Assembly: GCA_032718475.1 (NCBI GenBank) | Contig: JAUCBJ010000989.1 | Location: 49,339 to 113,338 of the forward strand | Length of the DNA: 64,000 nucleotides | Direction of reading: 5' to 3' | Origin: Nemertoderma westbladi | Lineage: Eukaryota; Animalia; Xenacoelomorpha | Part shown: piece after piece, positions 6,249 to 57,709 of the stretch | Numbering within the stretch: the first letter of the stretch is position 1 | Layout of the letters: the number at the start of each line of letters is the position of its first letter | Position numbers and translations under genes: made by a program | Notes under the pieces: model-generated | Seen by the model: only the letters and a program-made list of their open reading frames with translations | The model's database searches: none | Told to the model about the DNA's origin: nothing

Positions 6249-6295
6249 ATCTGCTATACGAGTTCACCAATATTATAATGAGTTTATATATTTGT

Positions 6296-30051: not shown

Positions 30052-30626
30052 ACCTCAAAACTGGTATACTGCACTTTCTTCTTAACGCTAAGACTCTTTA
30101 TGTTGTGTTAAGATGCATGTAATTTAAAATTATCATTGCACTAGACTCTTTGTTGGTTGACTGCACCGTTATCAACAAACTACAAAAAAAAAATCCTATA
30201 AATTTAAGAATGAGTGAAAAAGAAAATTATGGTACATATATTTAATGTAGTACATGTATAATATTAATGTAAAATTCTTAATTGTAATAGGCCTAATTTG
30301 TGATTTTAAGGTGGATGGGGTTCATTTCTAATGATAAGGCAAAATATCAATTATCTCTAAAATGAAAAAAAACAATTACAATTTTTAAACACGTCTCAAA
30401 TACAAAAGAATTTTAAGCCGAGTTGAAGTGTGGCGATTCAGTAATTCTGAATGAGGTGTGCTGAGAAAGTACGATATCTTGCGAGGTGGCTGGGAGTTCA
30501 TTCGCTCCCTATAGCAACTATGTGGGATTAGTGGTGTCGTGGAGTTAGGATACTTTAGAATCCAACTGCATCCTTATTTATTTAATATTATTTAATTATA
30601 TTATATTTTATTGCAATGTAATTAAT

Positions 30627-30976: not shown

Positions 30977-31262
30977 TGTGGAGATCCCTTGAGACTGACC
31001 CAATGCATGGCTTACTACGTTTAGATACTGTATGATATATTCTGGTAGTCTGTACCTTTTACCGGTACTGTTATATATATATTAGCCTGACCAATCCTGC
31101 AGTCCTGTAGTCTAATCATGACTACAGGACTACTGCTGTACTGCATGCTGGATTACAGCAATACTGCTATTTTACCTGCTTACATGTATTATATTAATAT
31201 AAACAATATTGCTTTGCTTATATCAACTTATCTTGTTTATGATCCTACATCGGATCATCACA
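30977..31262 (+). repeat. Gypsy 5' LTR (286 bp)
   Basis: TGTGGAGATCC...ATCATCACA; repeat of 35835-36116. Confidence 0.95.
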
Positions 31263-31273
31263 TGGCGCTGCGA
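31263..31273 (+). promoter_or_regulatory. tRNA primer-binding site (TGGCGCTGCGA, probably tRNA-Ser type)
   Basis: Canonical TGG directly after the LTR; the tRNA identity is inference. Confidence 0.75.
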
Positions 31274-31297
31274 TTATTATAAACTTACGTGACTCTC

Positions 31298-34200
31298 ATG
31301 GCTTACTCCCATGACTCCACACTTCCAGCCACCGATGACCGGGATGGCACGCTGTCGGAGTCCGACGTGTCTGCTACTGTGTCGCCCAAGACGCACCACA
31401 CACGCAAACTGTCATACGACGAACTGTTCCGTGCGCTTACCGATCACCAACGGGTTGCCGATGATCAGCATCGACGCGAGACAGAGGAATACCGCCGAGT
31501 TGTCGAAGAACAACGCCGAGAGGATGCACGCCGTGCAGATGAGCGCCTTGCAGCCCTAATCGAGGCGTTGCTTCCCCGTGCAGCTATCCCTCTGGCACCA
31601 CCCACCATGCCTACAGCCGGTGATCACGGCCCCAACCCCCGGCATCCCCCACGTGTCATTGATACACGCGCACTTGAGCGACTGGACGCCGATATCCGAC
31701 TGCCAGAGTTCCGCACCTGGCGGCGTCAGTGGGAATTCTTCGTCCGCCAGCACAGACTGACTTCCTACCCTGTGGACGAGCAAACGGCAGCTCTTTTAGG
31801 AACTTTTACAACCCGCCTCGCTCGGTCAGTCGAAGTAAACTGTGCCCTGGACCTCAGCGACCCCACACTCGCCCCAAGTACTGTCCTCGATGCCCTTCAG
31901 GTTTATCTTCGGGGTCAATCCAACCTTGCCCTCGACTATGTCAACTTCATTAACCGATCCCAACGGCCAGGGGAAACTGTCGATGAATACCGGATCGCCT
32001 TGGAGGATTTGGGGGCAGAACTTTGCACCCACTGCCGCAGCCACCAAATCGCTGTTCGCTTTGTTGCTGGCCTGCTCTGTGCAGAGACGAAGCAGAAACT
32101 ACTCGCTCGCACTCCGTTCCCAGATCTCCCGGAAGTTATCGACATATCTCGGGCTGAGGAGGCAGCTTCGAGGGAACATGCAAACGTTCGCATTGGTGGC
32201 CCCACTAGCTCCGTGTACCGTGCAACTTCCCGGGAACTGCCCCGAGACAATGGCCGCCGCCGGGGCAGTCACCGCTCTGTGGATCGGCAATGTGGAAATT
32301 GTGGGGGCACCCCTCACACAACCCGGTCCGACTGTCCTGCTTATGAGGTTATCTGTCTTAACTGTCAGCGTCGCGGCCACCTGCAGCGGATGTGTCGCAG
32401 CTCTGCCCCTGCTGCTACTCATGGGAAAGTTGGCCTTCTTCGAACCCATCAGATCACTGACTCCACATCACATGGCACACGCCCCGAACGACCAGTACCG
32501 GCCCCATTAGTCTCTGTCACAATTTCTGGAGCGCGTGGCAGCTGTACACTACCGGTTCTCCCAGACACTGGTTCCGATGTGAATATTATGGGTTTAACAT
32601 TAGTTGGTCGGTTTGGGGAACAGCCAGACAGACTACATGAGTCGGCTCAGCAGGTAGAAGCAGCCAATGGTCTCTCACTACATATTGGTGGCTCCCTGCC
32701 CCTCACTATTTCCTTCCAGAACCGCTCTCTCTCCACATCCTTCCTTATCAGCCGGGAGTATGATGGCATCCTTCTCTCCTGGAGAACGTGCACTGAACTG
32801 GGGATACTTAGGTACCATGACGCAGTCCCTCAGCCACTCATGGCAACTGCTATGGCCATTCAGCACCCTCAGACACCTGTGCAGTCAATGAGGCCACTGC
32901 CCCCACCCCTGGTGCTAAATGAGCCCCCCTTGGCTGAACAGGAGACAAAACGCACTGACATTCACCCGACTTGTCTTCCTACACCACCAGCCACAGTCGA
33001 GGGCCTCCGCAAACAAATCCTCAGTGAGTTCGCTGACGTCTTTGACCTGGAGGGCCCACTCCGACCCCAGGTTGGGCCCCCAATGTCTATTGACTTGGTC
33101 GAGGGTGCCATACCCTTCGCAGTCCGAGGGGCCCGGATCATTCCCCTTGCCTACCGTGAAGCTGCAAAAGAAAAACTTGACAAGATGCTGGCCGATGGTG
33201 TTATTGTACCAGTGACAAAACCTACCGAATGGTGCCACCCTCTTGTCGTAGTGCCAAAGAAACGTGGAGGTGTACGGATAACTGTAGACCTAACTAAACT
33301 CAATAAGTTTGTCCGCCGGCCAATTTACCCCCTTCGTACACCACGAGATGCTGTCTCTGACATCCCAGGTGGGATGCAGTTTTTCTCCACTCTTGATGCA
33401 GTGGATGGTTACTGGCAGCTCCCACTGGAGGAGGCCTCCCAAGACTTGACCACATTCGCCACCCCCTGGGGCCGTTTTAAACATGTACGTGCTCCGATGG
33501 GACTCTGCTCCACAGGCGATGTATACTGCCTACAGGGCGACCTTGCTCTCGGCTCTGTCCCACACACCCGGAAGATTGTCGATGATATCCTTGCTTTCTC
33601 ACCCAATCTATCCGCCCATGTGGACCTGATCCGGCGAATCCTCCTCCGCTGCCGGGAGTCAGGGATCACGCTGCATCCAGGGAAGTTTGCCTTTGCACAG
33701 GAGCGTGTGGAGTTTGCTGGTTTTTACATTTCTGCCACCGGTATCGAGGCAGACCCTGCTAAACTCGCGGCAATCGCCTCCTTCCCACGGCCAAACAATA
33801 TTACCCAGCTGCGCTCATTCCTCGGCATGGTTGAGCAACTGGGTACATTCACGCGTTGTATCGCTCCGACAGCTGCACCACTCCGGCCCCTCCTGCAGAA
33901 GAAAAACGCATTTGTCTGGGAGGAAATACATGATGAGGCATTCGCAGCTGTAAAAGCTGCCCTAACATCCATCCCTATTCTGGCAAACTTTAAACCCTGC
34001 CTCCCTACCATCCTCCAGACTGATGCCTCACGTGTTAATGGCCTCGGTTACGTATTGCTGCAGGACCACGGTGAGTCCCGGCACCTAGTTCAGTGTGGTT
34101 CCCGCTTTATTTCAGAGACAGAGGGGCGGTATGCCATGGTTGAGCTGGAGCTGCTTGCAGTCACCTGGGCACTCCGCAAGTGCCGTATATTCCTCTCTGG

Positions 34201-35791
34201 CCTGGCAGACTTTGAAATAGTCACCGATCATCGGCCCCTCGTTTCCATCCTCGATCACCACACACTGGATGAGGTGGAGAACCCTCGCCTCCAACGCCTT
34301 AAGGAGCGCACCATGGCCTACTCCTTCCATACCATATGGGCTGCTGGGAAATCCCATTGTATCCCGGATGCCTTGTCCCGCGCCCCAGTTGCAGACCCTA
34401 CTGCAGAGGACTTGGCAGATGAACTGGACCTAGTCTACTCCCCTGCCACTGTCTCAGCCCTCGCCACATCCCTATCATCATCCACACACCTGGTGGACTC
34501 CCTCATTATATCTCTCAAGGATGCTGCGAGTTTGGACCCAACATACCAGGAACTCCTCCATGCAGTTCAGAGTGGTTTCCCCATTAAACCTATGGGCGCG
34601 CTCCTCCCATACTGGAAACTGCGGGATAAACTTTCCTGGGACACTGGCCTTGTCCTCTATGATAATAGACTAGTAGTCCCCATGGGAATGCGCCCCGGTG
34701 TGCTCCAGCGACTTCATGCCTCCCACCAGGGAGTTGAACGTACAAAGCGTCGTGCGCGCCTCGCCGTTTTCTGGCCTAATATTGGTGAAGACATCCGTCA
34801 CATGGTGGACTCATGTGGCCTCTGCCAGGAATCACGCCCGAGCCAGCCCCGTGAACCACTACTCCAGGAGGACCAACCAAGCAGACCATTCGTGGACACC
34901 TCTGCAGACCTATTTGATGTTAGTGGACGTAGCTACCTCGTCTACACCTGCCAGTTCTCTGGATGGCCCTGTGTCACGGAGTGGAGGTCCCCTCCCACAG
35001 CGTCTGCAGTCACCAGGGCCCTCTCACGTGAATTCTCTGCAACTGGAGTACCTATACGACTCCGCACTGATGGTGGACGCCAATTTGACGCCCATGACTT
35101 CCGTGCCTTTGCCCAATGTTGGGGTGTCTCCCTCTCACCTTCCTCACCCTACAACCCATCCTCCAATGGCCACGCTGAGGCGACAGTCAAAGCGATGAAG
35201 AACCTGGTTAAGAAGTCTGGATTCCTAACAGATGCATTCAACCAGGGCCTCTTGGAATGGCGTAACACTCCGAACTCCACAGGACTGTCCCCTGCACAGA
35301 TTGTATTCGGTGCCCCCTTACGCTCCCTCGTACCGGCACATCACACAACTTACGCCCCCCAGTGGTGTACTATCGCCGAGGCGGCTGACCGTCGCTCAGA
35401 TGTTAAGGCAACTGAACAGGCAGCCCATGACCAGCACACCCGCGGCCTTCCCCGTCTCCACCTGGGAACCACAGTTCTACTACAAGACCCCAACACTAAG
35501 CGTTGGGATCGTACTGGCACCATCGTACAGGTTGGGCCCCACAGAGATTATAAGATTAAACTAGCGAGTGGGCATGTGTATCGCCGTAACCGCCGCTTTC
35601 TATGCCCAGCTACACCTCCCCACCCCACCCCAACTCTGAAACCCACTCAACCACCGCAAACCCAGGTTTCAATTGACCCCACCACCACCACTGCGCCACA
35701 GCCAGAGCGGCGTGTACAATTCGCACCTGAGCCTTTGCCTTTACCACAACGGCGCAGCCAGCGAAAAGTCCGCCCCCCAGACTATCTTTAG
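31298..35791 (+). CDS. Gypsy gag-pol polyprotein (~1497 aa), intact
   Basis: Two CCHC knuckles, protease LPDTGS, RT KIVDDIL, RNase H LQTDAS, integrase HASHQG..CGLC and D-D-E (ADLF, TDGG, AEATVK); order PR-RT-RH-IN. Confidence 0.95.
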
Positions 35792-35824
35792 TTTAGCTGC
35801 GCCATAGGTCACCTACGCTCAGCT

Positions 35825-35834
35825 AGAAGGGGGG
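35825..35834 (+). promoter_or_regulatory. Gypsy polypurine tract
   Basis: AGAAGGGGGG directly before the 3' LTR. Confidence 0.85.
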
Positions 35835-36116
35835 TGTGGAGATCCCTTGAGACTGACCCAATGCATGGCTTACTACGTTGAGATACTGTATGACATATTC
35901 TGGTAGTCTGTACCTTTTACCGGTACTGCTATATATATATGTATTAGCCTGACCAATCCTGCAGTCCTGTAGTCTAATCATGACTACAGGACTACTGCTG
36001 TACTGCATGCTGGATTACAGCAATACTGCTATTTTACCTTTTACCGATTAATATAAACAATATTGCTTTGCTTATATCGACTTATCTTGTTTACGATCCT
36101 ACATTGGATCATCACA
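35835..36116 (+). repeat. Gypsy 3' LTR (282 bp)
   Basis: Repeat of 30977-31262 with several substitutions and indels. Confidence 0.95.
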
Positions 36117-36918
36117 GTTTTACCATATGCAAAGTACTCCATTTTCTCCCGATTTCCTGATATTCGAGAAAAAAAAGTAACAATTTAAGAAGACAGTATT
36201 TTAATATAAATTTTGAGTATTTCTCACGACAATGTAATTCGTATAATTCAACAAATTTATTTTGCAGGGATTGCGAATTGCTGCTTGGTCAATCCCTTTT
36301 ATATTTACTTAACAGACTAAAAGTGAGAATATAAATCGAGGGTCAAGTTCAATAGCGTAGGAAAAATAATGTATGTAGGTGATCTGTAGGACTGCTGGGC
36401 CTGGGAGGTGCTGTACATAGCATAATGACGTGTATTGAGGACATACAACACATTCATGAACGGTGTTATTCCCAGGTCTACCTACCGTTTGCCTGTACTG
36501 CGATGGAGAACGTTAGAAACTTAGACTGCAAGAATTCAAATGTTCCGATTTTACTAAACTGCATACTGTAGCGGAAAATAATAATGATAGCCCTGTAGAA
36601 ATCAGACGTTCTACATGCCTTACTAAAAATATACCTACAGTAGATATACAGTATACATAAATACCAGTTATTTATTGCTATAGAACTGTGTTTCCAATGT
36701 AATTGTGTCTATTCTAGAAACTAATTTGTCCGTTCATCATTACTTGCTCACAAATAATATACTAGTATCATGTAATTAGAAGCTAATTAATAAACAATTA
36801 TTTAAAAGTAACAATTAAAACTGAATCTCACTTAAAAACAATTACCTCTTTCTACAGTAGCATAACTTATCATCCCAGTAGTTTATTTAAACATATTTAA
36901 GTACCGGAAGTTATTCTC

Positions 36919-38373
36919 ATGATGGGAGATCAACATGGCCCTTCCAGAAAACAGTCTTCACTGAAGCGACATCTCCCGTGTGGATCAGATAGTGAGAGCG
37001 ACAACGACTTAGGACATAAACGTTATATCCCCGGTGGTGATAGCGAAGATGAAGTCATTGAGATCTCCAAAGAACTGCCAGATAACGAAGGTTCAACATC
37101 AACCCGATACCCTGATTGGGCAGCACTTCCACACGAACTTATTTCTAATTTGTTCAGCTATTTACCAGAATGCGATCGGTTGTCAGCCGGCGGAACTTGT
37201 CTCAAATGGAATGAGGCCCAGAAAGATGCGGGGCTTTGGAGAACGGGAGATATTGCCATCAGTGGAGAACGGCATCACGATAAGAAAGAGATTGAAGTAT
37301 TTAGACAATACGGAGTTCATATGGAAAAAGTTGCAATCCGTTGCTATGGGAGGCTAAGCAATAGACAACAGATGTTATGGCACCTCAGCCAATCAGTGGA
37401 TCATCTTAAGGTATCCCAGCTAAAACAATTCCGTCTATGGATGGCTTCCCTCGGTATCTATGACACAAAAATATCGCAGCATTTAAATGAATTCTTCCGG
37501 TCACAGAAAGAGTTAGAAGACGTGACACTAAGAGATTTGCAAGTAAAGCCTTTAATTGACGGTGTTCGATTAATAGAAAGTTTGGTGAGACACAACCGCG
37601 GATCTTTAAAGAAGATCATAATCGATGAATTAATTCATCCATCTGCCGCATCTACTACGAGGCCCCTATCATCTGCTATGGGACCGCTCACTTCATTGAA
37701 GGCGTTGACGAACCTGAATATCAATTATAACTACTTGAATCCAGATATATTAGAAAGAATTCTGACTAACAGTCCCCATCTAATATTATTGGTACTCCGC
37801 CTAGATCTGACTAGATCTGATAATGTTTTACCTGTTGCTGATAATAACAACAGCCCGTGGAGAAAAGCCAACCCCGAGCTCTCGGTTCATATGCTGTTCT
37901 ACTTCGAGACAGTTGACGTTCATTCGCTGATTCGCTTGATAAAAGGACGACCTCCTCTGACGAAGTTCGAATTAGTTTCAGCTTGGATGGAAACAGGCGA
38001 CGGCTTATCTATCCTATTCCGCTATCTAGGTGATCACATGGACCAATGTCTGAAAGAGTTGGTAATGGAGTGCGGGCAGGATGAAGAAATACGTGTTGAC
38101 TTCGTTTCGATGGTAAGAGATTGTAAGAAGCTAGAGAGCATCACAATTACGATGACTCTCAAAATTGAAGTTGTAACTGATATCTGTGAGCTGAAGTTCC
38201 AGCAAGAAATTATTCCAGAATTAAAGAAGTGTCACATCGCCTTCGCGGGTGTGGATAATGGGGTTGAATTGAGTATCCTGAACCGTCAATGGAATGATAA
38301 GATAAAAGCTAGCGGAGTTGATTTCCGTTTCAATAAGTTCGGAGATCCTATGGAGATGGTCACTGTCGGTTAA
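36919..38373 (+). CDS. F-box/LRR-like protein, 484 aa (unit 2)
   Basis: Paralogue of 21869-23323; six amino-acid differences seen. Confidence 0.88.
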   Translation: MMGDQHGPSRKQSSLKRHLPCGSDSESDNDLGHKRYIPGGDSEDEVIEISKELPDNEGSTSTRYPDWAALPHELISNLFSYLPECDRLSAGGTCLKWNEAQKDAGLWRTGDIAISGERHHDKKEIEVFRQYGVHMEKVAIRCYGRLSNRQQMLWHLSQSVDHLKVSQLKQFRLWMASLGIYDTKISQHLNEFFRSQKELEDVTLRDLQVKPLIDGVRLIESLVRHNRGSLKKIIIDELIHPSAASTTRPLSSAMGPLTSLKALTNLNINYNYLNPDILERILTNSPHLILLVLRLDLTRSDNVLPVADNNNSPWRKANPELSVHMLFYFETVDVHSLIRLIKGRPPLTKFELVSAWMETGDGLSILFRYLGDHMDQCLKELVMECGQDEEIRVDFVSMVRDCKKLESITITMTLKIEVVTDICELKFQQEIIPELKKCHIAFAGVDNGVELSILNRQWNDKIKASGVDFRFNKFGDPMEMVTVG

Positions 38374-40045
38374 TTAGAAGATACTGGAGCTGAATGTCTT
38401 GGATGGTTAAATACAAGACGCTCACTAATTCACGCTCGCCGATTAGCTAATAATTATTAATCGTGTTTATATATTGTATATTCTTACATTATTGGTAACA
38501 AGTAACTAAAAATAGAGTCCTGCAATATTTTATATATTTATATATACAGTATATTTGATACAGCACAACCCCCCCCCCCCCCCCCCCCCCTCCCCACACG
38601 TCACACTGTTATTTTCTTCTGATTGTGCTTGGCAATTATATTAAGATGACCTTGATGAAAGTTACTCGTTTACAAAACATTGGGGTTCTAAAAACTGCTT
38701 AAATTAATAAGGTAACTATTTCATAGCATGAATCATTTTTTTTAATGTTTGTATTAATTATGTACACTTGTACTGTACAGTCGGTCTATATTATTAGCAT
38801 CAACTTTATAATGGAGAGCTTCACCTTCCTACTTGAATAATTCATAAGAAAATTTGTTGATTCTTTAATCCTAAGGCATCTCAAATTGGGATGTACCACT
38901 AAAGTTAGAGGCGGAGTAGCGTTACTATTAACTTCTAGTGCGACTTGGTGTTGTTTCAATACTCGCAGGGCAAGGGAACACGTTCGTGGGGCCTTCGCGC
39001 AGCACGAGGCCCAGTTATTAGATACAAATTAAAATTGAGCGACTGTATCACAAAATCAGGTTTTGAGAAATTTACCCACACCACCAATCAATCAAAGAAA
39101 GAGGGACAGTACGTGTTCACCCCTTTTAATCTGCACCCCCCCCACCCACCCTTCTCAACCACCAATACATAACCGCGACTTCTACCACCCACGGAAGGGT
39201 AGCACGAACTTATTTCCAATCGCACGTTAAATATGCAAAGCCAGGTGGTTTATAGGAATATAATAAACGCAGTACTCGTTTTCATCATAAGCCTCTTTGC
39301 GTTCGTCCTGTTTTGTATTTAAATATATTTCTTAAACGCAGGCTAGGACGATCTTTATAATAATAATAACTAGGGATGCGATCAATATGTGAAGCCAGGT
39401 GGTTTATATAATAATTTAGTCAACGCAGTACTCGTCTTCTTTATATGCCTCGTCGCTTGTCCTGTTTTGTCAAAAAATATTTTTCCTAAACGCAGACTGA
39501 CGATCTTTATACAGTTATAACTATGCGAAGTTTCGAAACTGTGCGAGTAACTGTTGATACATCTATGTGGAGATGTGTGATATGTGGAGATGTGTGATAC
39601 AACGCCAACGCATCTTATGCCGATGTAGTAATATGGGTATTGAAATAATATTAAATGAATGTACACTCTTAAAGCTGCAGCGAAAAAATGTAGCTAATTT
39701 CCTAGGTTACATATAAAATAATAATATTATTTTTAAGAACATTAATTTTACTACTTTGCAAAAATTCATTTAAAAAATAACCAGACATATACATTGTGGA
39801 ATAAACTATTTCAGAAGCCTACAACAGCCATGCCATGGATTGTGGGGCGAGCCACGAAGTGAGTGAGCCTTAGCGTAGTGGTACCATTAATCAACCTGTG
39901 GGGCGAGCCACGAAGTGAGTGAGCCTTAGCGTAGTGGTACCATTAATCAACCTGTCGTTCTGTCGTTCTGTCGCGTTTTTTTCAGTATTTTATTTTAAAC
40001 GTTAATAACTCGGCCAATCCTTGATGAAATCTATCCAAACTTGGT

Positions 40046-41207
40046 TGTAAAAGCTTTTGTGGGATAACTGATTCGTTTGCCTTGCTAACCAGTTCCCCCC
40101 AGGCGCTAGAATACTCTAAAAAGGGATCTATAACTCGAATAGCGCAAGCTACCGGCTGATTGGCTGATTCGCTGTGCGAAGGGATCTGAGCTACGTTTGA
40201 TTGTCCAACCAGCTTGGGAAAGTTGCCCCACAGCCCTGCTTTCTGTATCTGCCAATAGGATTTGAGTTGATTTTGATTTCGACCTATCACAGATCTACTG
40301 AACTGAATTTTCCTATCTGTATGCTCTTTCTCTGTGTTGGGTGGAAGCCTTTGTAAATAAGGTTATTCTTATCAGTTTTCAGTGTTGTTGGTCTTTCTTC
40401 CTGAGCCAAGGAAGAACGGCCTTGGAAATATTTTGTGCCTTTTCTGTTTTAGTCTAACACTAGTAGGCTTAATTATAAGGACATATATCCGTTATCAAAC
40501 TAATGAACACACTGAATCACTGTGCATACGTTTATATTGTTATACTGCTATTTACTGTCAGTTCTTCATAATATGGTTGATGAATTATTATATTTGGAAT
40601 AACGATAAATAACCCCGAAACCCAATATTCTTGATATACCGAAGGTAAGAGAGAAAGGTTACATATAACGATTGTGACTTATGTTAAAGTGGTTTGAAGT
40701 GAATCTAATGTTATTTGATAGACCCTACATGAGTCGGTCCGTGTTCCTTTTATATATAACTAAAATCAGTGAAGATCGGCAGATCAGTGTGCAGTATTGT
40801 GCAGCATTGTGTATGAGTGAGCCTGATAACGAAGCATTTCCTAAAGAATGCGCCATATATGTGAATTATAACTAAGCCATATCGTTGTGAGTAGTTTAAG
40901 TCATAACTCTGTTTGTATAGATAGAGCGCCACGTCCTAAAGGAACTGTTAATATTTCCCGAAGGTGAATAATATTGTCAGAGATTATATAATACTGTCAG
41001 TCGAATAATACATTAAGCTTACATAGCAATAAGATTAAGCCGTCGAACCCAATCTCCCGGGTATATCCAGCGGGTGAATGATCGCGCACAGATTGGTTTC
41101 GACTAGTGTAGTGAATTAAATACTTGTCATAGGCTAAAAGTGATTTATTATCTAGAAGACATCCTAATTTGGCGGGTTAAACTGCCAAAGGTCTAAAAGC
41201 GCGAACA
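40046..41207 (+). repeat. 5' LTR of BEL copy 2
   Basis: TGTAAAAG...GCGAACA; repeat of 57710-58871. Confidence 0.97.
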
Positions 41208-41315
41208 ATAACGGATATATATTCTGTATTGCAGTGTAGGCATTAAATACAGTTTAATATTGTTCTGGTAAGAACAATAACGGATATCGCTTCTTTATTG
41301 CAGTAAGCAATAAAG
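41208..41315 (+). promoter_or_regulatory. Duplicated non-tRNA PBS-equivalent plus hairpin module
   Basis: ATAACGGATATAT (41208-41220) is complementary to LTR 40483-40495; second ATAACGGATAT at 41277-41287; each is followed by a hairpin. Confidence 0.6.
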
Positions 41316-41635
41316 TTGAAAGTACCGGTCAACCGGTAAACCTGAACGGTACTTCAGTAGGTCAGTAGGCCCAACCGCCAGAACCGGTACTGCCGTAGGT
41401 CCAACTGCCAGAACCGGTACTTCTGTAGGTCCGTAGGCCTAACTGTCCTAACCGGTACTTCCCGTATAAGTACATTAGTATTATTCGATTTGATTGTTGT
41501 ATACCGGTAGGCTGTTTAAGAGATTAGGGACTGTACACCCCTTGTTTCTTTTGGAGCTTACTTATTTCTGTCAGTTTTATTTGTTTGTAGGCCAGTATTG
41601 AACAGAAGGCGTGTAAGCCTGATCAGATTGTACGG

Positions 41636-42210
41636 ACAATTTGTAGGCTGAGCTGTTGTCTGATTGCTGTTAAGTCTGAATGGATTGCAGTGTGTAGATC
41701 ACCTGTCCGATAAAGAACGGTTAGGAAGTAGGGGCAGCAAATGCTGTAAGGTAAACCCCCAACTAAAGAATAAGTCGTACTACTGGGTTAGAACGCATAC
41801 TACCTAATCATTTCGGAGTCTGCATGTCCTGTAGTTTATTTAGGCTTGAGAGTAGTCTGCCATCGTTGAGTCTGTACTTTGTTTGTGTAAGTCTGTACGG
41901 GTAGCGTATAATATTTATTCAGATAATTTGTAGGCTGGATAGTTGTCTGGCTGTTATTAGGTCTGAACGGATTGTAGTGTGTGTAGAGCCCTTGTCCGAT
42001 AAAGAACGGTTAGGAAGTAGGGGCAGCCAATGCTGTAAGGTAAACCCCCAATTAAAGAATAAGTCGTACTACTGGGTTAGAACGCATACTACCTAATCAT
42101 TTCGGAGTCTGCATATACCGTAGTTTGTTTAGGCTTGATAGTAGTCTGTCAGTGTTCGGTCTGCATTTTGTTTGAGTGGTTTGTACGCGTAGCGTAATAT
42201 TTATTATTCA
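41636..42210 (+). repeat. ~290-bp tandem duplication in the BEL copy 2 leader
   Basis: aatttgtaggctg...gtccgataaagaacggttaggaagtaggggcagc...tttcggagtctgcat occurs twice; single in copy 1 (~17320-17600). Confidence 0.8.
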
Positions 42211-43143
42211 GAGTTTATGCGATTATTCACAACATTCATTCCCCAAGTTTGTTCCTACAGTAATTGTGTTTGTTATACATACCGCTATAGTTAAATTAAC
42301 CCCGGTACTACACGGGCTGCTTGGCGTAGGTAAAGACTGGTGATTTTGTGCACCGGTCACTCCAGCAGATGCCGTGGTTCTTTTAGCTGTTCAAGTATAT
42401 TTAACTACTGATTATCTGTTGTACAAGTACTCGTACCTAATTTAGGGTTTAGTGTACAGTGCTTTCCGAGAGTAATTAGTGTAGGCATTATATTTGTGTT
42501 GTAAAGTGGTTGATAGGCACGTTCGATTAGCTCTATTAACTTCTAGGTAGGAACACTCCGTGATACATAACGTAGTACCTATAGCGATACGGCTATAGGT
42601 CGTCAGGCGGTGGTATTTTCCTATCTGGACAACGCAGTGTATTTACTACTACTTATTATTTTCAAATACCGTAGTACCCTGTCCGTTGTAATAACCAGAA
42701 TTCTAACCCTTTGTTAGGCTGGTTTGTAGACTTCTTGTAAAATTACCCTAAAAATTCGTATTTTGTGTTTTTGTAAATTTTTGTGTTTATTTAGAGATTG
42801 TAATCTCACCCGAATTGTACGTAATTTGTAGTATTAAGTAACTTAGGTAAATTAGCATTATTTGTTTTAGTGTCCTATAAGTAACACTTCACTGAAAGCG
42901 CACCGCTTTGTGTAGTGATTACTCCCCAGAAATAATAGCATTTATTTCAAACATTGACAAAACCCATTAAAACGGGTATATATATATTATAAATCAAATC
43001 TAACGATTTATAAATAGTAGGCCTACCATACAACCATTAGGTCTCAATATCAGTTGGACTACTGCTCAAATAACGGTAATAAAGTAAGTAAAGTAACAAA
43101 GTAACCCTAAAATTCAGAAATTCAATTATTTAAAATAATTGAT

Positions 43144-43384
43144 ATACCGGTATTTACGATAGGCCTATTATCTTTATTTCTATAAATCTAGGCTGAAATT
43201 ATACCGGTACTTGTAATTAATTCTATTCCAGAATTATAATTATACTACAAAACTGTAAGCTGTATACCGGTATTCCCGATAGGCCTATTATATATTTATA
43301 TATATTTGTGCTAAAATTATACCGGTATTCTGTGATAAACCTAGTCTGTAATAATAGTTATATATACTATAAGCATACCGGTAT
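43144..43384. repeat. Five phased ATACCGGTA(T/C) palindromes upstream of gag
   Basis: Starts at 43144, 43201, 43264, 43319, 43375. Confidence 0.8.
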
Positions 43385-43517
43385 TCTAATATATTATATA
43401 TCACGCTATACTGAGTAGCAGTACCGGTAATTAATTACTAGGCTATCAGTTAATACTGAATTACTAGACTTGCTTAGACTGTAATATAGCAGTAGGCATT
43501 CAACTGTATCCATAAAC

Positions 43518-46500
43518 ATGTCTGATACTAAGCAGAACCTGTCAGACAGTTTATTAGATGTAACTATCTGCGACTCAGATAGAGGCGTAGAACCGTCTAG
43601 TCGTAAGTTCAGTTCACCTCCCACTGTGAGGAAGGTCATCCCTCCAGTAGTAATAAAAGAACCTAGGCTGGTCCAACATCGTAGGTCTATCATAGGCACT
43701 CGAGCTCAGGTCAAGCGGGACAAAGAAGCAGCGGAACAGCAACAACCCGCGAGCCAAGAACTTACTTCTCAACGGCCCAACAGCTCCAGTAGTGAGGATA
43801 CTGTAGAACTGACACCAGAACGCGGAGCAAAGATGATGGATGCGGTTTATTCGGATCCCCTTCTCATCCTTCCTGCAGCCGTACTCACTAGGTTATTGAT
43901 CGCTGTGGAAGAACACCAGATCGATTGGGCGAGAAGCCAGCGTTCAACTAGAGATAGTTATGCTGGATACACAAGGGAAGAACTGAAGTCCATGGTCGAG
44001 TCGCAATGGAACTTCCCCGGACCCGGACTCCCGTTTGATTTATCAGAAGCTGCCTGGGAAGACATACACCTGATGGGAGTAGCCAAAGAAACCATAGATC
44101 CCGCTGTGTGGAAGAGGTCCGCAGCCGGATACGCACAGGGATTCTTCAGCTCTATGGAGCGAGTAAAAGGAAAACTGTTTCAACAACCACAAGGACCTCA
44201 AGAGCAGGGACAACTGCTTTATCAAGTTAGAGAAAGAATTCTACAAATCAGGCTAATATTATCGGCCTTTGAGGAGGCTTCTAAACGAAGACAAGACACG
44301 TCGTTGCAAGTTGCCGTAAAGACTTGGTTTCAAAGGGTGAGTCTCCAGGTTCAAGGAACAGCTCAGTGGAAAGCTCAGCTGGAGGAGCGCTCAACCCATG
44401 GAGAATCAACAGACGCTACTTTTTCCCAAGTGGAAAGTGAAGCGACAGCAGAGAAACCGCATAAGAGGGATGCCATTGACATCTATCTGTCAGACTATCA
44501 ACGTTTTTTAGGTGATGACGAGTTGAGGAGAAGGTTAGATGGACTTAGCCCTAATAGCGAAGGAACTCAGCGTGTGTTGGATGCCATCGATGTGGAAATG
44601 AGGGCTGCGAATCAGGCTAAATTTGATGAACAACTCCGCCTGACACGAGTCCAAGAAGAACAAGTAAAGAAAAAACGTATAGAAGACAGAAAGAAAGCAG
44701 CAGTGGTAGCTGCAGAAGCAAAAAGAAAAGCGGTAGCGGCAGAGGCAGCGGCAGAGGCAAAAGCGGCCGAAGCTGAAAGAAAAGCGGCAGCGGCAGCGGC
44801 AGAAGCAAAAGCGGCCGAAGCTGAAAGAAAGGCGGCCGAGGCTGAAAGAAAGGCCGCAGAGGCAGCGGCAGCGGCAGAAGCAAAGGCGGCCGAAGCTGAA
44901 AGAAAGGCGGCCGAGGCTGAAAGAAAGGCCGCAGAGGCAGTGGCAGATGCCGAACGGAGAGCGACTGAAGAAACCACCCAATTAGAATTGGAAAACATTC
45001 AGGAGAATCAAGACTGCATAAATAAACAGTTAACAGCTAGTAATATGCAGATGATGAATCGATCTACTCCCAAAAGACAGGGATATACATCATCTGAGGA
45101 AGGCGATACCACCGATACTGAAGGCAAAGGAAATAGATCTCGTTTAAGCAGACGTAAAAGAACATTCCACCGTCAGAAATTGCCTGATTTGCCTCCAGCT
45201 GTTAGAAGGCAACTAAATAACACCAACTTAGGTAGTACAGAGCCCACAGACCAAACAATTAAAATAGAAAGACTCCCTACGATAGTAGATGAGCCTGAAA
45301 TAATTAGGCCTGTTCTTGAAATCACCCCTTCGGTGATAGACACACCTGTGCTCCCTGAGACTACCTCTAAATTCCCTCTGCATAGCACTAAGCTACCTGT
45401 GCCCCGTAGAACTGCCCAGGAGACAGTTCAGGTCCTGGACCCCGAGCGAAATATTCATAATTTGTCGCCCGTTGTCCCTCGTCCGCCCGCTACAACGTTG
45501 GCGACTCCCGCTTCGGCGGTCGAATGGGTGGATGAGAGACGGCGGGGGATGGATCTCCTGCTCGGGCAGATGCAGGAGACTGTCCAGCAATTCAAGGGCA
45601 CAGTAAGGGAAAGTAGGCTAGAGTTGCAAGAAGTGCAGCAAAGTATCGCGCTAGAACGCGATAAATTAGTAAATACTCAAAGGGGTATACCACCACCCTC
45701 TGTAACAATGTGTCAACCTGTTAGGTCTGAAGTATCGCATGCGCAAGGTGTGGAGCCTACACGCATCTATACTGCTAGCGAAGTAGAAACTCCTATAGTG
45801 AACCCTATTAAGGGTAATTATAGACCTGTTGATAATGATATTCCATATAGAACTGATCATAATCCGAGAAATTTATATACCGATAACTCGATATTAAATA
45901 ACACGATGGCCCAAGAAAGTTTTACGCGTCAAATGGCTAGAACCGAAGCCCGGCAAGCGGTGAAGGTGGGAGAGATCGTCAAGTTCAATGGAGATGAGAT
46001 GAAATGGTTACCTTTTAATGAATATTACAAAGATAACATACAGAACTCTGTACTATCTAATGGAGAAAAACTTAGATACCTCATCGAGTGCTTGGAAGGA
46101 TCTCCCAAGTTAATGGCGTTAAAATTTATTGGACATCCAGACGGATTAAGACAAGTTTGGGATACACTAAACATCAGGTATGGTAATAGGAATAACATCG
46201 CTGGGTATTTGTATGCAAAGTTGGTAGCGCCCCGAAAGTTTATTAGCAGCGGAATTATCGAGTTTTCCGATGAGATTCAGGAGATCTGTAGACAATTAGA
46301 TTGGCTAGGTAAGTCTCAGGAGTATCAGAATGCTATGGTTATTAGAGCAGTGGCTTCTACTTTACCGAAGGGTGGAGTAGGTACACGCTGGGATAAGAAA
46401 GTGTTATATATGATGGAACAACAACGACGAGACCCTACCATGGCTGATCTCATGTCATTCCTAGATGGAGAAGTGAAATTACAGCTCCTGAAACTGTCCA

Positions 46501-49500
46501 GAGAGAAGACACCGGAAAACAAGGTAAGTGAAAAACCCGTCTCTAGGAGAAAGGTAACACCAGTGTGTTATACAGACGACGGCGAAAGCCAGACTTCTCA
46601 AGGAGAAGATAGCGGGAAAGACACTGATAGATCTTATTATGTCAATAAAATGCCTAAAGATCAGGTAAGTAAATTCAAGTCTCGAGCAAATGACAGGAGA
46701 GAACAGGTAAGAAAAACTCCTCCCACGTCTCCCAAGAGAATTCCGGTGAGAAAGCCCGAAGAAAAGGCAAGTGTACACAATGTGACTCAGATTAAGGTGA
46801 GTAACATCAAACCAAAATGTGCGCTATGTGATGGGACCCATCGCTTGAATATGTGTGATGAATTTCTAAAGAAATCATTAACTGAGAGACGTGAAGTCAT
46901 GTGGGACAAGCGGTTGTGTTATAATTGCCTCAGACAAGGACATCAACGGCGAACCTGTTACTCAGACATAAGGTGTGCAAAGTGTGGTGCGAAACATCAT
47001 ATCTTGTTGCACGCTGAATTCGATCGAAATAGTCCTAATCAGGTAAGTGATTCCGAACTACATGTCCAATTCAGTGATGTGAACGACACTGATCAATCTG
47101 AGATGGAAGGATTCTATACGGACGAGTTCTCCGACGAAAACGAATCCTGTTATATGATAAATACCGCAGTGTATCGAGCACTCACATATGAAAAGGATAC
47201 AGACAGCGACTTCACTCTAACTACTTCTGAACGACAACCATCTTGGAAAGAGCCATCTTCCAATGTAGGGATCCGAGAGTTTCCTGTGGTGCAAGTAAGG
47301 GTTCACGGACCTAAGAGGAGTTATGTAGTGAACGCCCTCCTTGACTCCGGTAGTACAGGAACATTCATCGACAAAGAGCTAGCCGAAGATATATTTGCTG
47401 GACAACCCAAGTTCCAAACTAAGCTCAACATGTCCGGCATTATGCAAGTTTGGAAATCTACAATAACAGCGGATTATTATGTAGGAGCGTTGTCCACCCC
47501 CCAGGACGAACTAGGAGAACATAGCATAAGGTCAGTGAAAATGGTGGCTATAAAGAACTTCGCTACTACTCAAGCAGACCTTTATAATTGGGACGAGGAT
47601 GAGAGCATCCAACATCTTAACATACCTCGATTCCAGACTGATTATCCTGGAGTGCAAATACTCATCGGCCAAAACGCGCATGAGGCGCTGGAGACATTAG
47701 AGAAACGGCCTGCTCAACCGCAGCCACTACAGACCTATGCGGTAAGAACTAGAGTAGGTTGGTACTTTACTGGCCCTTCCCGTAGAACACTCAGAGAAAG
47801 ACTACCGCCAGAGAGCGTCTACCAGGTGAGTGAATGGGAAGATGATACTAGTGAGGGAGACGATTTAACTGAGGGAACCCCATACTCCTCAGATAACGAC
47901 GACGTTCACCAGCTTTTTGATGAGGAGAATACCATCGATCTCCTTAAGGAAAACGAGGCTTGGCAAAACCAAGTGAACTTATGTCAACTTCTTTATCCAT
48001 CTGAACGAGAAGCTTATAACGACGAGTTAAATGACGTCATTGAGCGTTGTAATGCCAAGACTCGAGATGAACATGCCGTACGATTCTTTACGCAAGAGGC
48101 GGTAGAGCCCAATTCCTACGATAAAGCCTTGTCGGTGGAAGAGGAAAGGGCCAAGCAGATCCAAGAGACAACTACACGTTTCCTCAAAGATCAAGGTAGG
48201 TATGAAGTCGGTCTACCTTTCCGCAAGAAAGAACCGAAGTTCATCAATAACAGACCCTTGGCGGAAAAAAGAATCGCGCAACTCCATCGACGCCTTACGG
48301 CTAATTCTTCAGCTAAAGCAATGTATCAAACACAGCTGGAGAAATTTATTAGTAAGGGATACGCGGAGAGAGTACCGGAAGAAACACCTGTGACTGAAAG
48401 AACGTATTACTTAACTCACCATTACGTTCCTAAACCCGGTAAGCCACATGAAGTGAGAGTAGTGTTTGATGGCTCCGCTCTTTACATGGGTCAATCCCTT
48501 AACTCTGAATTGTTACCCGGACCCAACTTGCTTCAATCTTTGTTGGGAATTCTTTTAAGATTGAGACAATATTCGATTGCTTTCGCCTCCGATATAGAAG
48601 GCATGTTCTTACAAGTCAAGGTGTTAGATAGGGATCGAGATAGTCTACGATTTCTGTGGTGGCCCGAAGGAGACCTCAACCAGAAACCGGTGGAGTACTG
48701 GATGACCATCCAGGCCTTTGGGATAATCTCAAGCCCTTCCAACGCCTGTTCGGTAGTGCGTACCACTGCAGAGGACAACCGAGAGGCCTTCTCTAAGGAA
48801 GTGATCGACAACATCAAGAGAGACATATACATGGACGACAATCTGAAGTCCCTTCCATCAGTTGAGGAAGCCATTGAGGTCGCTAAAGGAACGGTAGAGT
48901 GCTTAAAAAGAGGTGGGTTTCGATTAACAAAATTCACCAGCAACTCCCGTGAGTTTCTGGAGTCGATCCCTGCGGAAGATCGAGGGGCGAAAGATCTAGA
49001 TTTGATCAAAGATGATCTGCCAGAAACCAAGACACTCGGCTTGAAATGGGACACAGAGCGAGATATTCTGTTTTTCCAGCTAAAACAGCGAGATAATCCA
49101 GTTCGAACCAAACGGATTTGCTTAAGTATACTGAGCACTTATTTCGATCCATTGGGATTTATTAGCCCAGTTATATTGATTGCTCGTAGTTTGGTACAAC
49201 AAATGTGGCTTGAAAACCACTCATGGGACGATCCACTTAAGGGAGAATTATTGAAGAAGTGGATGAAATGGGAAGATTCTCTGCCGGCTATCGAGGATTT
49301 TATAATTTCCCGTTCATATTTTGGTCATGTTCTCCCTACGTATTCCTATCAACTCCATGTGTTTGGAGACGCCAGCGATATGGGAATAGGTATAGTAGCC
49401 TATCTAAGAGTGGAAACTCCGGATGGAATCAAAGTCGCCTTGGTTACTTCTAAGGCATTAATCAACAACAAGTTGAAAGTTCCTCGAGCGGAGTTAAAAG

Positions 49501-51713
49501 CGGCTCTATACGCTACAGCCATCGGCCGGAATGTAACAGAACAGATTGACTATCCATTAGAGAAAACTGTCTATTGGACCGACGCTTTACTCGTGTTAGA
49601 GTATATAACCAATGAAGTCTGTCAGTTCAGCGTCTTCGTTACCAACAGGGTAGCCATCATACTTAGTCGCACGACGATGGACCAATGGAGACATTGCCCC
49701 GGAACGATTAATCCAGCAGACATCGCTTCCAGGGGAGCGACTCCAAAGGAATTGGTAAATACTCCCGAATGGTTAGGAGGACCCGACTTTCTCTACAGAG
49801 AAGAAGAAGAATGGCCTCCCCATCTCACAACAGCAGAGATCAGACAGGCCAAGGGAGCGGAGAAAGTTAAACCCAAAACTCGAGCGAGTAAATCGAAGTT
49901 GTTTAAACCTGCGGTTGATCTATCTGTATTATTTACTTCCGGAGAGGATGCTTTGGATCAGAAACCCACCGCCACGACTAAAGAAGTCTTGGAAATCCGT
50001 GACAAGGATTGGAAATCTGGAATACCAGATATCGCGCAAGGACTCTCACCCCTCTTGCAGAGAGCGATACGTCACTACAGCTCCTGGAATCGGCTCTGTA
50101 AAGCCGTCACCTATTTAAAACGATGTTTTCATCATCGTTACTCCGGGACAAAGACCAATAGTGATGATGCTCCATCAACATCTGCACGAGTCCATGTTGT
50201 TAAAGATCTTCCCCAATACAAGGTATCCGACAGGTTTCTAAAGGAGAAGATCAGTTACCAGGAGCATGATGAAACCAACAAACAGATGCTGAGACTCCTA
50301 CAATGTTATGAGGATTCCGATAAGTATTTCCTGTTGTTAAGAAATCCACAGATGCGCTTAAGGGATCGCTTCTCTAGTACCATGATAGATGGGTTAATAC
50401 GTGTTGGAGGTAGGCTGACCAACGCCCCATTATCCTTTGACACCAAATTTCCCATACTCATTAGAAATCTTGACATACAAATCAAGATGATTGTAGATGT
50501 TCATAGCAAACTGTACCATGCTGGTAGAGAACGAGTTCTGAGCGAAATTCGAACTCGCTACTATTTTTATAAACCCCGTAGGGCTCTGAACCAAGTTCTT
50601 AGGAACTGCATACCCTGTAGGAAAGCATTCAGTAGGCCTTTAACACAGCGAGAGGCAGAATTACCTAGGGAAAGAGTAAGCTTCTATGAACCACCCTTTA
50701 CTAATACCGGTGTGGATTTATTTGGCCCTATTGAAGTATATCGTGCCCGGACTATAGTCAAGAGATGGTGTGTCATCTTCGTTTGTATGACTTGTAGAGC
50801 TATCCATCTCGATATGGTAAACGATCTATCCACCAACAGCTTCGTGTTGAGTTTACGACGACAGATTGCTCGCTTCGGAACCAGTAACACGATGAGATCG
50901 GATAAGGGAACGAACTTCATTGGCGCCAACAACGAAATTCAAGCTTACGTAAAGGACTGGAACAAAAGACAGGTGGACGATCAGCTAAGGATAACAGCGT
51001 CTAGCTGGACCTTCAACGCCGCCGACGCCCCTTGGTGGGGAGGAAGTTGGGAGAGATTGATTAGGAGCGTGAAGACTGCGTTCCACTTTATTGTGCCTTG
51101 TCGCGCTTATCTCACCGACGAACTATTGCGGACGTTAATGGAGGAAATCGCCGCCTATCTCAACGAAAGACCGCTTATGCCAGTCTCTTCAAGTCCTGAT
51201 TCCCTGGAAGCGCTAACACCCGCGCACTTTCTACTGAAGAAACCCGTAGCCATGCTCCCACGATCGGAGATCACAGACGGAGACGAGTACTGCCGTCGAA
51301 CCTGGCAACTTATGCAGTTGCTATCCCGTCGTTTCGCTGACCATTTCGAGAAACATTACCTGCCCACTCTACAACTTCGAACTAAGTGGTTTGCGCAGCA
51401 AGAAAACGTCAGCGCTGGAGACATGGTGCTTATTGTGGACCCCGATCTCCCACGTAAGCGATGGCAAACAGGACGTATCATCGAGACTCATATCTCGAGC
51501 GATGGTTTGGTGCGATCAGTAGAGCTCGTCGTCATGCGACGTAACTTTAAGAAACCAGGGATAGTCTTTGAGACTCAACAGCTCAATCGCCCAGTGGGTC
51601 GTTTATGTTTACTGGAAAGAGACAGAGAGCTCTCCGGAAACTATGGAAGACAAGAAACTCTTCCCACGACCACTTCCCTAATCCAACCGACATCTAGGGA
51701 CTCCCCAACTTAA
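43518..51713 (+). CDS. BEL/Pao gag-pol polyprotein, 2731 aa, intact
   Basis: Long N-terminal extension with AAEAERK repeats, BEL gag (KFNGDEMKWLPF..EKLRYL), three Cys/His knuckles, protease ALLDSGS, RT YMDD, Pao RNase H FGDAS..RAELKAA..WTDA..NPADIASRG, integrase HHCC + DDE. Confidence 0.96.
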   Translation: MSDTKQNLSDSLLDVTICDSDRGVEPSSRKFSSPPTVRKVIPPVVIKEPRLVQHRRSIIGTRAQVKRDKEAAEQQQPASQELTSQRPNSSSSEDTVELTPERGAKMMDAVYSDPLLILPAAVLTRLLIAVEEHQIDWARSQRSTRDSYAGYTREELKSMVESQWNFPGPGLPFDLSEAAWEDIHLMGVAKETIDPAVWKRSAAGYAQGFFSSMERVKGKLFQQPQGPQEQGQLLYQVRERILQIRLILSAFEEASKRRQDTSLQVAVKTWFQRVSLQVQGTAQWKAQLEERSTHGESTDATFSQVESEATAEKPHKRDAIDIYLSDYQRFLGDDELRRRLDGLSPNSEGTQRVLDAIDVEMRAANQAKFDEQLRLTRVQEEQVKKKRIEDRKKAAVVAAEAKRKAVAAEAAAEAKAAEAERKAAAAAAEAKAAEAERKAAEAERKAAEAAAAAEAKAAEAERKAAEAERKAAEAVADAERRATEETTQLELENIQENQDCINKQLTASNMQMMNRSTPKRQGYTSSEEGDTTDTEGKGNRSRLSRRKRTFHRQKLPDLPPAVRRQLNNTNLGSTEPTDQTIKIERLPTIVDEPEIIRPVLEITPSVIDTPVLPETTSKFPLHSTKLPVPRRTAQETVQVLDPERNIHNLSPVVPRPPATTLATPASAVEWVDERRRGMDLLLGQMQETVQQFKGTVRESRLELQEVQQSIALERDKLVNTQRGIPPPSVTMCQPVRSEVSHAQGVEPTRIYTASEVETPIVNPIKGNYRPVDNDIPYRTDHNPRNLYTDNSILNNTMAQESFTRQMARTEARQAVKVGEIVKFNGDEMKWLPFNEYYKDNIQNSVLSNGEKLRYLIECLEGSPKLMALKFIGHPDGLRQVWDTLNIRYGNRNNIAGYLYAKLVAPRKFISSGIIEFSDEIQEICRQLDWLGKSQEYQNAMVIRAVASTLPKGGVGTRWDKKVLYMMEQQRRDPTMADLMSFLDGEVKLQLLKLSREKTPENKVSEKPVSRRKVTPVCYTDDGESQTSQGEDSGKDTDRSYYVNKMPKDQVSKFKSRANDRREQVRKTPPTSPKRIPVRKPEEKASVHNVTQIKVSNIKPKCALCDGTHRLNMCDEFLKKSLTERREVMWDKRLCYNCLRQGHQRRTCYSDIRCAKCGAKHHILLHAEFDRNSPNQVSDSELHVQFSDVNDTDQSEMEGFYTDEFSDENESCYMINTAVYRALTYEKDTDSDFTLTTSERQPSWKEPSSNVGIREFPVVQVRVHGPKRSYVVNALLDSGSTGTFIDKELAEDIFAGQPKFQTKLNMSGIMQVWKSTITADYYVGALSTPQDELGEHSIRSVKMVAIKNFATTQADLYNWDEDESIQHLNIPRFQTDYPGVQILIGQNAHEALETLEKRPAQPQPLQTYAVRTRVGWYFTGPSRRTLRERLPPESVYQVSEWEDDTSEGDDLTEGTPYSSDNDDVHQLFDEENTIDLLKENEAWQNQVNLCQLLYPSEREAYNDELNDVIERCNAKTRDEHAVRFFTQEAVEPNSYDKALSVEEERAKQIQETTTRFLKDQGRYEVGLPFRKKEPKFINNRPLAEKRIAQLHRRLTANSSAKAMYQTQLEKFISKGYAERVPEETPVTERTYYLTHHYVPKPGKPHEVRVVFDGSALYMGQSLNSELLPGPNLLQSLLGILLRLRQYSIAFASDIEGMFLQVKVLDRDRDSLRFLWWPEGDLNQKPVEYWMTIQAFGIISSPSNACSVVRTTAEDNREAFSKEVIDNIKRDIYMDDNLKSLPSVEEAIEVAKGTVECLKRGGFRLTKFTSNSREFLESIPAEDRGAKDLDLIKDDLPETKTLGLKWDTERDILFFQLKQRDNPVRTKRICLSILSTYFDPLGFISPVILIARSLVQQMWLENHSWDDPLKGELLKKWMKWEDSLPAIEDFIISRSYFGHVLPTYSYQLHVFGDASDMGIGIVAYLRVETPDGIKVALVTSKALINNKLKVPRAELKAALYATAIGRNVTEQIDYPLEKTVYWTDALLVLEYITNEVCQFSVFVTNRVAIILSRTTMDQWRHCPGTINPADIASRGATPKELVNTPEWLGGPDFLYREEEEWPPHLTTAEIRQAKGAEKVKPKTRASKSKLFKPAVDLSVLFTSGEDALDQKPTATTKEVLEIRDKDWKSGIPDIAQGLSPLLQRAIRHYSSWNRLCKAVTYLKRCFHHRYSGTKTNSDDAPSTSARVHVVKDLPQYKVSDRFLKEKISYQEHDETNKQMLRLLQCYEDSDKYFLLLRNPQMRLRDRFSSTMIDGLIRVGGRLTNAPLSFDTKFPILIRNLDIQIKMIVDVHSKLYHAGRERVLSEIRTRYYFYKPRRALNQVLRNCIPCRKAFSRPLTQREAELPRERVSFYEPPFTNTGVDLFGPIEVYRARTIVKRWCVIFVCMTCRAIHLDMVNDLSTNSFVLSLRRQIARFGTSNTMRSDKGTNFIGANNEIQAYVKDWNKRQVDDQLRITASSWTFNAADAPWWGGSWERLIRSVKTAFHFIVPCRAYLTDELLRTLMEEIAAYLNERPLMPVSSSPDSLEALTPAHFLLKKPVAMLPRSEITDGDEYCRRTWQLMQLLSRRFADHFEKHYLPTLQLRTKWFAQQENVSAGDMVLIVDPDLPRKRWQTGRIIETHISSDGLVRSVELVVMRRNFKKPGIVFETQQLNRPVGRLCLLERDRELSGNYGRQETLPTTTSLIQPTSRDSPT

Positions 51714-53316: not shown

Positions 53317-53363
53317 ATAAATATATAAACTCATTATAATATTGGTGAACTCGTATAGCAGAT

Positions 53364-57631: not shown

Positions 57632-57709
57632 CTGTTTAGAGTATTTATGTATATTAGAAATTGTGATTTTGTATATTTTATAGACTTAAATCCCATTTTC
57701 TGGGAGCGG

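Follow-up and report, generated by a model that had tools for sequence, protein, structure and literature searches.

How does an LTR retrotransposon start reverse transcription when its 5′ LTR is not followed by a tRNA-type primer-binding site (PBS)? The question is raised by a 64,000-nucleotide stretch of the genome of the xenacoelomorph Nemertoderma westbladi (contig JAUCBJ010000989.1, positions 49,339 to 113,338; hereafter the window), in which one LTR retrotransposon family is present twice, on opposite strands, each copy being 18.5–18.8 kb long (Table 1). An initial annotation had suggested that this family, assigned to BEL/Pao, primes minus-strand synthesis from its own RNA, either with the 5′ end of R or with a trimmed 3′-terminal segment. 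The comparisons reported here support the general proposal and separate its two versions: the 5′ copy is favoured and the trimmed 3′ end is disfavoured. Some form of self-priming is, in our estimation, very likely. More specifically, we consider it probable, from sequence comparison, that a complement of the element’s own LTR replaces the tRNA PBS, and that the minus strand is primed, as in Tf1, by the motif copy in the 5′ part of the element’s own transcript.

Structure and classification of the element

A Pfam search with the gag-pol ORF of copy 2 returned Peptidase_A17 (E = 1e-35), DUF1759, DUF5641 and Integrase_H2C2, and these Pol and Gag domains identify the element as BEL/Pao. The order protease–RT–RNase H–integrase is that of the superfamily; the closest relatives, the top ones of which carry PF05380, are 30–43% identical across Pol. 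LTRs of 1162 and 1224 nt (a length of 0.2–1.2 kb being expected for BEL/Pao), a purine tract, and the 5-nt target-site duplications (TSDs) and TG..CA LTR ends found in both copies also agree with this assignment. The two LTRs of copy 1 differ from each other at three positions, and those of copy 2 at none. Two traits given by the ICTV for Belpaoviridae, a genome of 4.2–10 kb and an 18-nt PBS for tRNA-Arg or tRNA-Gly (PMC8742986), are absent: the copies measure 18,826 and 18,455 nt, and a self-complement lies in the place of the PBS. We retain the BEL/Pao call despite the PBS mismatch because it rests on Pol. Membership of the Tf1/Sushi chromoviruses, which have a Ty3/gypsy Pol, was considered and rejected on the Pfam domains.

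In length the element is roughly double what the ICTV range allows. Gag is greatly extended at its N terminus (region 43485–46000), and an Ala/Glu/Lys-rich repeat lies there at 44696–44953. The leader of copy 2 (41208–43484, ~2.3 kb) carries ACCGGT palindromes clustered near 41326–41510 as well as internal repeats of ~288 and ~120 nt, and may be a packaging or dimerisation region. Elsewhere in the window are a Gypsy-type element (30977–36116) with a 1502-aa ORF, LTRs of ~285 nt and an ordinary TGG PBS; two near-identical 490-aa ORFs (21851–23323 and 36901–38373) within a segmental duplication, the first with an F-box match; and, at the window end (63564–64000), an 80-nt, MITE-like inverted repeat. 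Three cysteine-rich coding segments (1–693, 19149–19839 and 28882–30257), which we take to resemble LDL-receptor class A repeats, are duplicated and interrupted by the insertion of copy 1; Pfam gave no match on 1–516.

Table 1. Features of the two element copies in the window (window coordinates)
Feature	Position	Strand	Details
Copy 2, whole	40046–58871	+	18,826 nt, LTR to LTR
Copy 2, 5′ LTR	40046–41207	+	1162 nt, TG..CA; TSD 40041–40045 and 58872–58876
Copy 2, island common to host LTR subtypes	40447–40496	+	ends at motif; from contig and subtype comparison
Copy 2, LTR-internal motif, predicted self-primer	40483–40495	+	13 nt, starts at a C|A step; putative role
Copy 2, PBS position	41208–41220	+	offset 0, without TGG; exact complement of 40483–40495
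Copy 2, second PBS-like copy	41277–41287	+	LTR end and PBS duplicated, in copy 2 only
Copy 2, 9-bp hairpin	41293–41315	+	directly past second PBS copy; same hairpin after copy 1 PBS
Copy 2, gag-pol ORF	43485–51713	+	2742 aa; DUF1759, zinc knuckles, protease, RT, Peptidase_A17, integrase, DUF5641
Copy 2, extra ORF	53443–57631	+	two frames; 3′-5′ exonuclease-like region, two zinc-knuckle-like motifs
Copy 2, PPT position	57702–57709	+	short purine-rich tract preceding 3′ LTR
Copy 2, 3′ LTR	57710–58871	+	identical to 5′ LTR; motif copy 58147–58159
Copy 1, whole	19148–694	-	18,455 nt, LTR to LTR
Copy 1, 5′ LTR	17925–19148	-	1224 nt; variant motif at 18692–18682, one G:U pair
Copy 1, PBS position	17914–17924	-	11-nt complement, without TGG
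Copy 1, gag-pol	7907–15970	-	four in-frame stops inside
Copy 1, extra ORF	1995–6263	-	1422 aa
Copy 1, 3′ LTR	694–1917	-	1224 nt; motif 1461–1451

The PBS position is complementary to the LTR

The first 58 nt past the 5′ LTR of copy 2 contain no TGG, and none stands directly after the 5′ LTR of copy 1, as had been observed before. Instead, the position where a PBS is expected is the reverse complement of a motif within the LTR: the pairing claimed for copy 2 (13 of 13 nucleotides, starting at offset 0) and for copy 1 (11 of 11, with the motif of its 3′ LTR) was recovered in full, and the single C>T change in the 5′ LTR motif of copy 1 does keep the pairing as G:U. Among 3000 dinucleotide-shuffled LTRs none yielded a 13-nt match, and ten of 3000 yielded one of 11 nt. 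When mock PBSs were taken from the window, 88 of 62,770 positions reached 13, most of those listed belonging to a few local inverted repeats. The Gypsy-type element serves as a control within the window: its self-complement at the TGG PBS is at most 4 nt. ARAGORN found no tRNA gene in the 64-kb window, and Rfam gave one sub-threshold match there.

The two LTR subtypes in the window differ across most of the LTR upstream of a shared stretch (~40399–40499) and diverge again just past the motif, confirming the conservation through the motif that had been described. Further subtypes in public contigs share ~40447–40496 and, among the loose ends listed, leave this island at 40494–40508; these contigs come from three DNA runs and one possibly RNA run, the contigs of which make neither start nor splicing visible. 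None of the loose ends listed in host contigs has an intron splitting the motif. The island is likely to be a core promoter plus primer.

The second PBS-like copy and the 9-bp hairpin of Table 1 are additional to the initial annotation. Within the duplicated LTR-end/PBS region of copy 2 (41208–41315), the hairpin of the first unit has diverged, but its pairing is apparently kept by change on both sides.

Relatives carry the complement in family-specific letters

If the two arms pair, their letters should be found to change together across families, and this check, proposed with the original claim, has now been run. Relatives were sought in metagenome contigs with a Pol alignment, and of at least 474 confirmed loci the best 80 were used. 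A long direct repeat was present in 37 of the 80; in 15 cases a single locus was enough to define where the 5′ LTR ends, and for two further families this took a pair of loci (L028/L018 and L027/L069), giving 17 with a repeat-fixed LTR end. We dropped L078, in which the repeat was coding DNA, and 21 others in which it gave the LTR start only or was a contig-end overlap; in L006, L022 and L075, where the BLAST match ran past the LTR end, we cut it back by eye.

All 15 in-group loci with a repeat-fixed LTR end have a complement of 10–15 nt to their own LTR at an offset of 0–5, and these complements represent 13 different cores: the letters of the PBS differ by family and the LTR of the same element matches them each time. 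The covariation argues that the two arms pair. In contrast, none of the three TGG-PBS elements (L029, L059 and the Gypsy-type element of the window) has a self-complement, and on the RT tree neither L029 nor L059 belongs to the group. Cross-pairs between families matched in 14 of 342 cases, six of them among three families sharing one PBS, under a rule that was relaxed post hoc after L027, L028 and L067 had been seen, with related families being non-independent. The stricter first rule gave 13 of 13 in-group loci and 4 of 270 cross-pairs, with control values of 1 of 17 for the opposite strand of the own LTR and 2 of 300 for leader windows. Where the repeat gave the LTR start only, matches were split in L008, L014, L041, L057 and L067 and contiguous in L033; the LTR ends of these six were inferred from the match itself, and they are left out of the counts. 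L012 and L046, whose LTR ends are not fixed by a repeat, have no credible match. Viral contigs yielded neither a relative of the element nor a match to the pattern.

A FastTree RT tree (110 rows) unites every self-complementary locus with the window element in a single clade, at a local support of 1.0, and in a quick IQ-TREE search (42 rows) the same group has an SH-aLRT of 89. Both trees were built without named BEL/Pao references (BEL, Pao, Tas, Sinbad, Suzu, Dan, Flow). The branch of the window element is long (1.37) and unstable, and its position is moderately supported. The self-complementary state requires one change on the RT tree, and may have had a single origin.

Further properties of the motif are shared. 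AATAAA or ATTAAA lies downstream of it in 11 of 13 relatives, placing the motif inside the transcript. The predicted primer ends in AC or AT in 14 of the 15 relatives and in the window element. Spacing, by contrast, is a point against the self-priming reading: the motif lies 712–757 nt from the PBS in the window element, and 62–203 nt separate motif and LTR end in relatives. In two relatives (L073:208–230 and L075:162–185) an ATG, a possible gag start, stands directly at the PBS end, so that the predicted duplex would run into it or end right beside it.

In most relatives an intron-like segment interrupts the complement

The most surprising part of the comparison concerns the relatives. The complement is contiguous in five of the 15 (L031, L064, L073, L075 and L076) and unsplit in the window family; in the other ten (L003, L006, L009, L015, L022, L027, L028, L030, L043 and L047) it is interrupted by a GT–AG intron-like segment of 76–366 nt. 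Every such segment has a GT donor (GTAAG in seven of the ten), and the acceptor is a pyrimidine tract plus YAG in all ten. In these families the full match would therefore exist in spliced RNA only, and the arms, provided that the segment is spliced, would pair at the RNA level. Sister pairs on the tree combine the two states (L043/L076 and L057/L031), the pattern that repeated intron loss or gain would be expected to leave.

One split family also bears on annotation practice. In L027 (56–75, with L069:6608–7027) a TGG stands right after the LTR, yet the element has a 14-nt split self-match, so that a TGG in this position can by itself mislabel such elements and is insufficient for calling them tRNA-primed.

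When the intron was removed in silico, the helix between the arms reached a mean probability of at least 0.5 in seven of nine loci when the best of three start points is taken, whereas the unspliced half-helix stayed at or below 0.01 in all nine; with the intron removed, the helix was not predicted in two of the nine (L041 and L071) and was predicted weakly in L075.

Transcript start and folding of the window RNA

RNA of the window element probably starts at or shortly before 40483. Three features of its sequence point to this start: the C|A step at the end of the match, a helix that is predicted only with that start, and the shortness of all the matches. In folds of 900-nt RNAs, which are unreliable at this length, copy 2 RNA started at 40483 forms the helix with a probability of ~0.48 with the first PBS and ~0.46 with the second, and copy 1 RNA started at the motif does so with 0.73; a start 30–100 nt upstream lowers these values to ~0 in copy 2 and 0–0.07 in copy 1, at a cost of 8–10 kcal/mol, because 40824–40866 competes. 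Across families, 13 of 17 rows have a match bounded on its 5′ side by a pyrimidine–purine step, compared with a background of 0.47 (P = 0.014, post hoc). If the RNA started at the motif, the first exons of the split families would be 4–9 nt long, which counts against such a start. The following also speak against it. TATA at −30 is not enriched across families (4.35 against 4.0–4.3), and none lies at −30 of 40483 in the window; a TATAAG is found at 40474, 9 nt upstream of 40483. We take the hexamers at 40449–40454 and 40479–40484 to be initiator-like and DPE-like, respectively, one base off the usual spacing; 40452 also resembles a splice acceptor.

A model for priming from the 5′ copy

We propose the following sequence of events. 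Transcription would start at or shortly before 40483, and the motif is predicted to fold back onto the PBS and pair with it. By analogy with Tf1, the RNase H of the element would then cut just 3′ of the duplex to release a free 3′-OH, from which RT would extend through U5 and the remainder of R before transfer to the 3′ R. Plus-strand copying of the primer would rewrite the PBS in every cycle, which could keep the pair matched while families diverge. In the split relatives host splicing would build the primer. The progeny LTR would be copied from the 3′ R, which must remain unspliced if the intron is to persist.

This last point separates the two forms of self-priming. Under the standard scheme of reverse transcription (PMC7175516), a primer from the 5′ R would never be copied into the new LTR, which leaves room for the intron to be kept; were the 3′ copy spliced, the intron would be lost. 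We prefer the 5′ copy over a trimmed 3′ end because the relatives keep the LTR intron and have no extra ORF.

A wider scenario seems to us evenly poised between acceptance and doubt. The lineage would have abandoned tRNA priming, and its commoner state would be one in which the host spliceosome assembles the RT primer by joining a 4–9 nt piece to the exon that follows it within the LTR, making splicing a replication switch. Intron-less families would arise when 3′-spliced RNA is reverse transcribed, and the giant window family may have gained an exonuclease for the ends of primer or cDNA. If the split primers are real, they would tie retrotransposon replication to host splicing and offer a control point to hosts and elements alike.

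Alternative explanations

The pairing might be a real RNA structure with another function, such as packaging, dimerisation or translation control, while another primer, a protein or a host RNA starts synthesis. Covariation indicates pairing rather than priming, a hairpin follows the PBS in the window element, and a fungal Copia lineage is described, in the accessible part of the source, as having a conserved hairpin of unknown use in place of the PBS (PMC5445492). We nevertheless regard this explanation as rather unlikely: the paired arm always lies 0–5 nt past the LTR end, oriented so that a 3′ end is directed into U5, the predicted primer nearly always ends in AC or AT, and no other PBS candidate was seen.

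Alternatively, the RNA 3′ end might be trimmed to the motif, possibly by an exonuclease-like product of the extra ORF downstream of pol, and then prime at the PBS. Between the copies, the extra ORF has more synonymous than non-synonymous codon differences, 86 against 41. Having no transmembrane stretch (highest 19-residue hydropathy 1.19), it is not env-like, and an env identity was rejected. In one feature search, the language-model features of residues 690–1000 resembled clusters of 3′-5′ exonucleases (0.92–0.93), PF01612 being assigned to 50–60% of the members of those clusters, and acidic residues occupy what we presume to be the positions of a DEDDy site. Such an exonuclease-like ORF keeps the trimmed-3′-end route alive for the window family, and the TATAAG could place the transcript start near 40504, with the motif in U3. 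The exonuclease identity is a lead only: Pfam, PDB sequence and protein searches do not support it, no protein relative of the extra ORF was found at E 0.01 or E 1, and a single-sequence AlphaFold model has a pLDDT of 30.7, too low for reading a fold. Moreover, relatives of 6.1–7.7 kb with the same anatomy have no tblastn match to the extra ORF, which indicates that the shared mechanism does not need it; the LTR intron, which a spliced 3′ copy would remove from progeny, is retained in 10 of 15; and trimming, if the established scheme applies, would take away the 3′ R required for strand transfer. Priming by a trimmed 3′ end thus appears distinctly unlikely.

We consider it very improbable that priming comes from half of a host tRNA, or from some other small RNA, and that the LTR match is a by-product; half-tRNA priming is known in Copia lineages, according to the available text of PMC6317226, but here ~14 different small RNAs would be required, and an own-LTR complement rebuilt in each family, often across splice sites, would be left unexplained. 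Chance, or an inverted repeat at the DNA level, is rejected: AT-rich LTRs do cross-match over at least 10 nt in 8 of 336 unrelated pairs, but own-LTR matches number 16 of 16, split matches are unable to pair as DNA, and the second arm is absent at the 3′ LTR. The same absence led us to reject a MITE-like reading in which the two arms would be terminal repeats.

Comparison with known systems

The statement that BEL/Pao elements are generally tRNA-primed agrees with the ICTV description of Belpaoviridae (PMC8742986), and Achilles, a BEL/Pao element, is given a tRNA-Tyr PBS in the accessible part of its description (PMC4580426). With Belpaoviridae/Semotivirus, of which Achilles is an example, the window element shares the domain set and order, TG..CA LTRs, a 5-nt TSD and a single gag-pol ORF; it differs in its length of 18.5–18.8 kb and in having no tRNA-type PBS. 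The initial annotation was not aware of self-priming in BEL/Pao, and among the papers listed in literature searches, outside Repbase, GyDB, supplements and most subscription journals, none reports it in its title or the opening of its abstract. The terms PBS, tRNA and priming have no match in the accessible text of two BEL/Pao surveys (PMC554778, PMC3118150), and BEL self-priming is absent from the available portions of PMC3601003, PMC5445492, PMC8220671, PMC3286476, PMC13524379, PMC9094657 and PMC5408684.

An extra ORF after pol with likeness to a 3′-5′ exonuclease recalls the DEDDy exonuclease ORF3 of the rotifer elements Juno and Vesta, as far as the accessible description goes (PMC5408684). 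That likeness is drawn from the description and one feature search, and the ORF here has 1422 aa and zinc-knuckle-like motifs.

The closest parallels in mechanism lie in other superfamilies. The available parts of PMC6317226 and PMC7175516 report self-priming in Tf1/Sushi, in Tcn1 and, within Copia, in the TAR lineage. Tf1/Tf2 of Schizosaccharomyces pombe, Tf1/Sushi and the Tcn1 chromoviruses likewise have no tRNA PBS, and ~11 nt after the 5′ LTR complement the LTR; in Tf1, it is the first 11 bases that pair with the PBS, and base 11 is separated from base 12 by RNase H cleavage (PMC7175516, same parts). The Pol of those elements is Ty3/gypsy, whereas that of the window element is BEL/Pao by Pfam. 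The RNA of Tf1 opens with its 11-nt motif, whereas for the window element a start at the motif is a prediction from sequence, and the loop here exceeds 700 nt; most relatives here have a split primer, and an intron-split primer is absent from the accessible descriptions of Tf1 (PMC7175516, PMC6317226). The plant Ty1/copia elements of the TAR lineage (Houba, Osr-1) have a complement of at least 10 nt located 0–5 nt after the 5′ LTR, on which the prediction of their self-priming is based (PMC6317226, accessible part), and the window element (13 of 13 and 11 of 11) and 15 of 15 relatives have the same; the TAR elements are Copia and from plants, and no split primers are described for them in that text. 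The comparison provides good support for the view that a known mechanism, self-priming, operates in a superfamily for which we found no report of it. If this is true, BEL/Pao would be the third LTR superfamily on this route, after Gypsy and Copia, and would bear on how modes of priming evolve.
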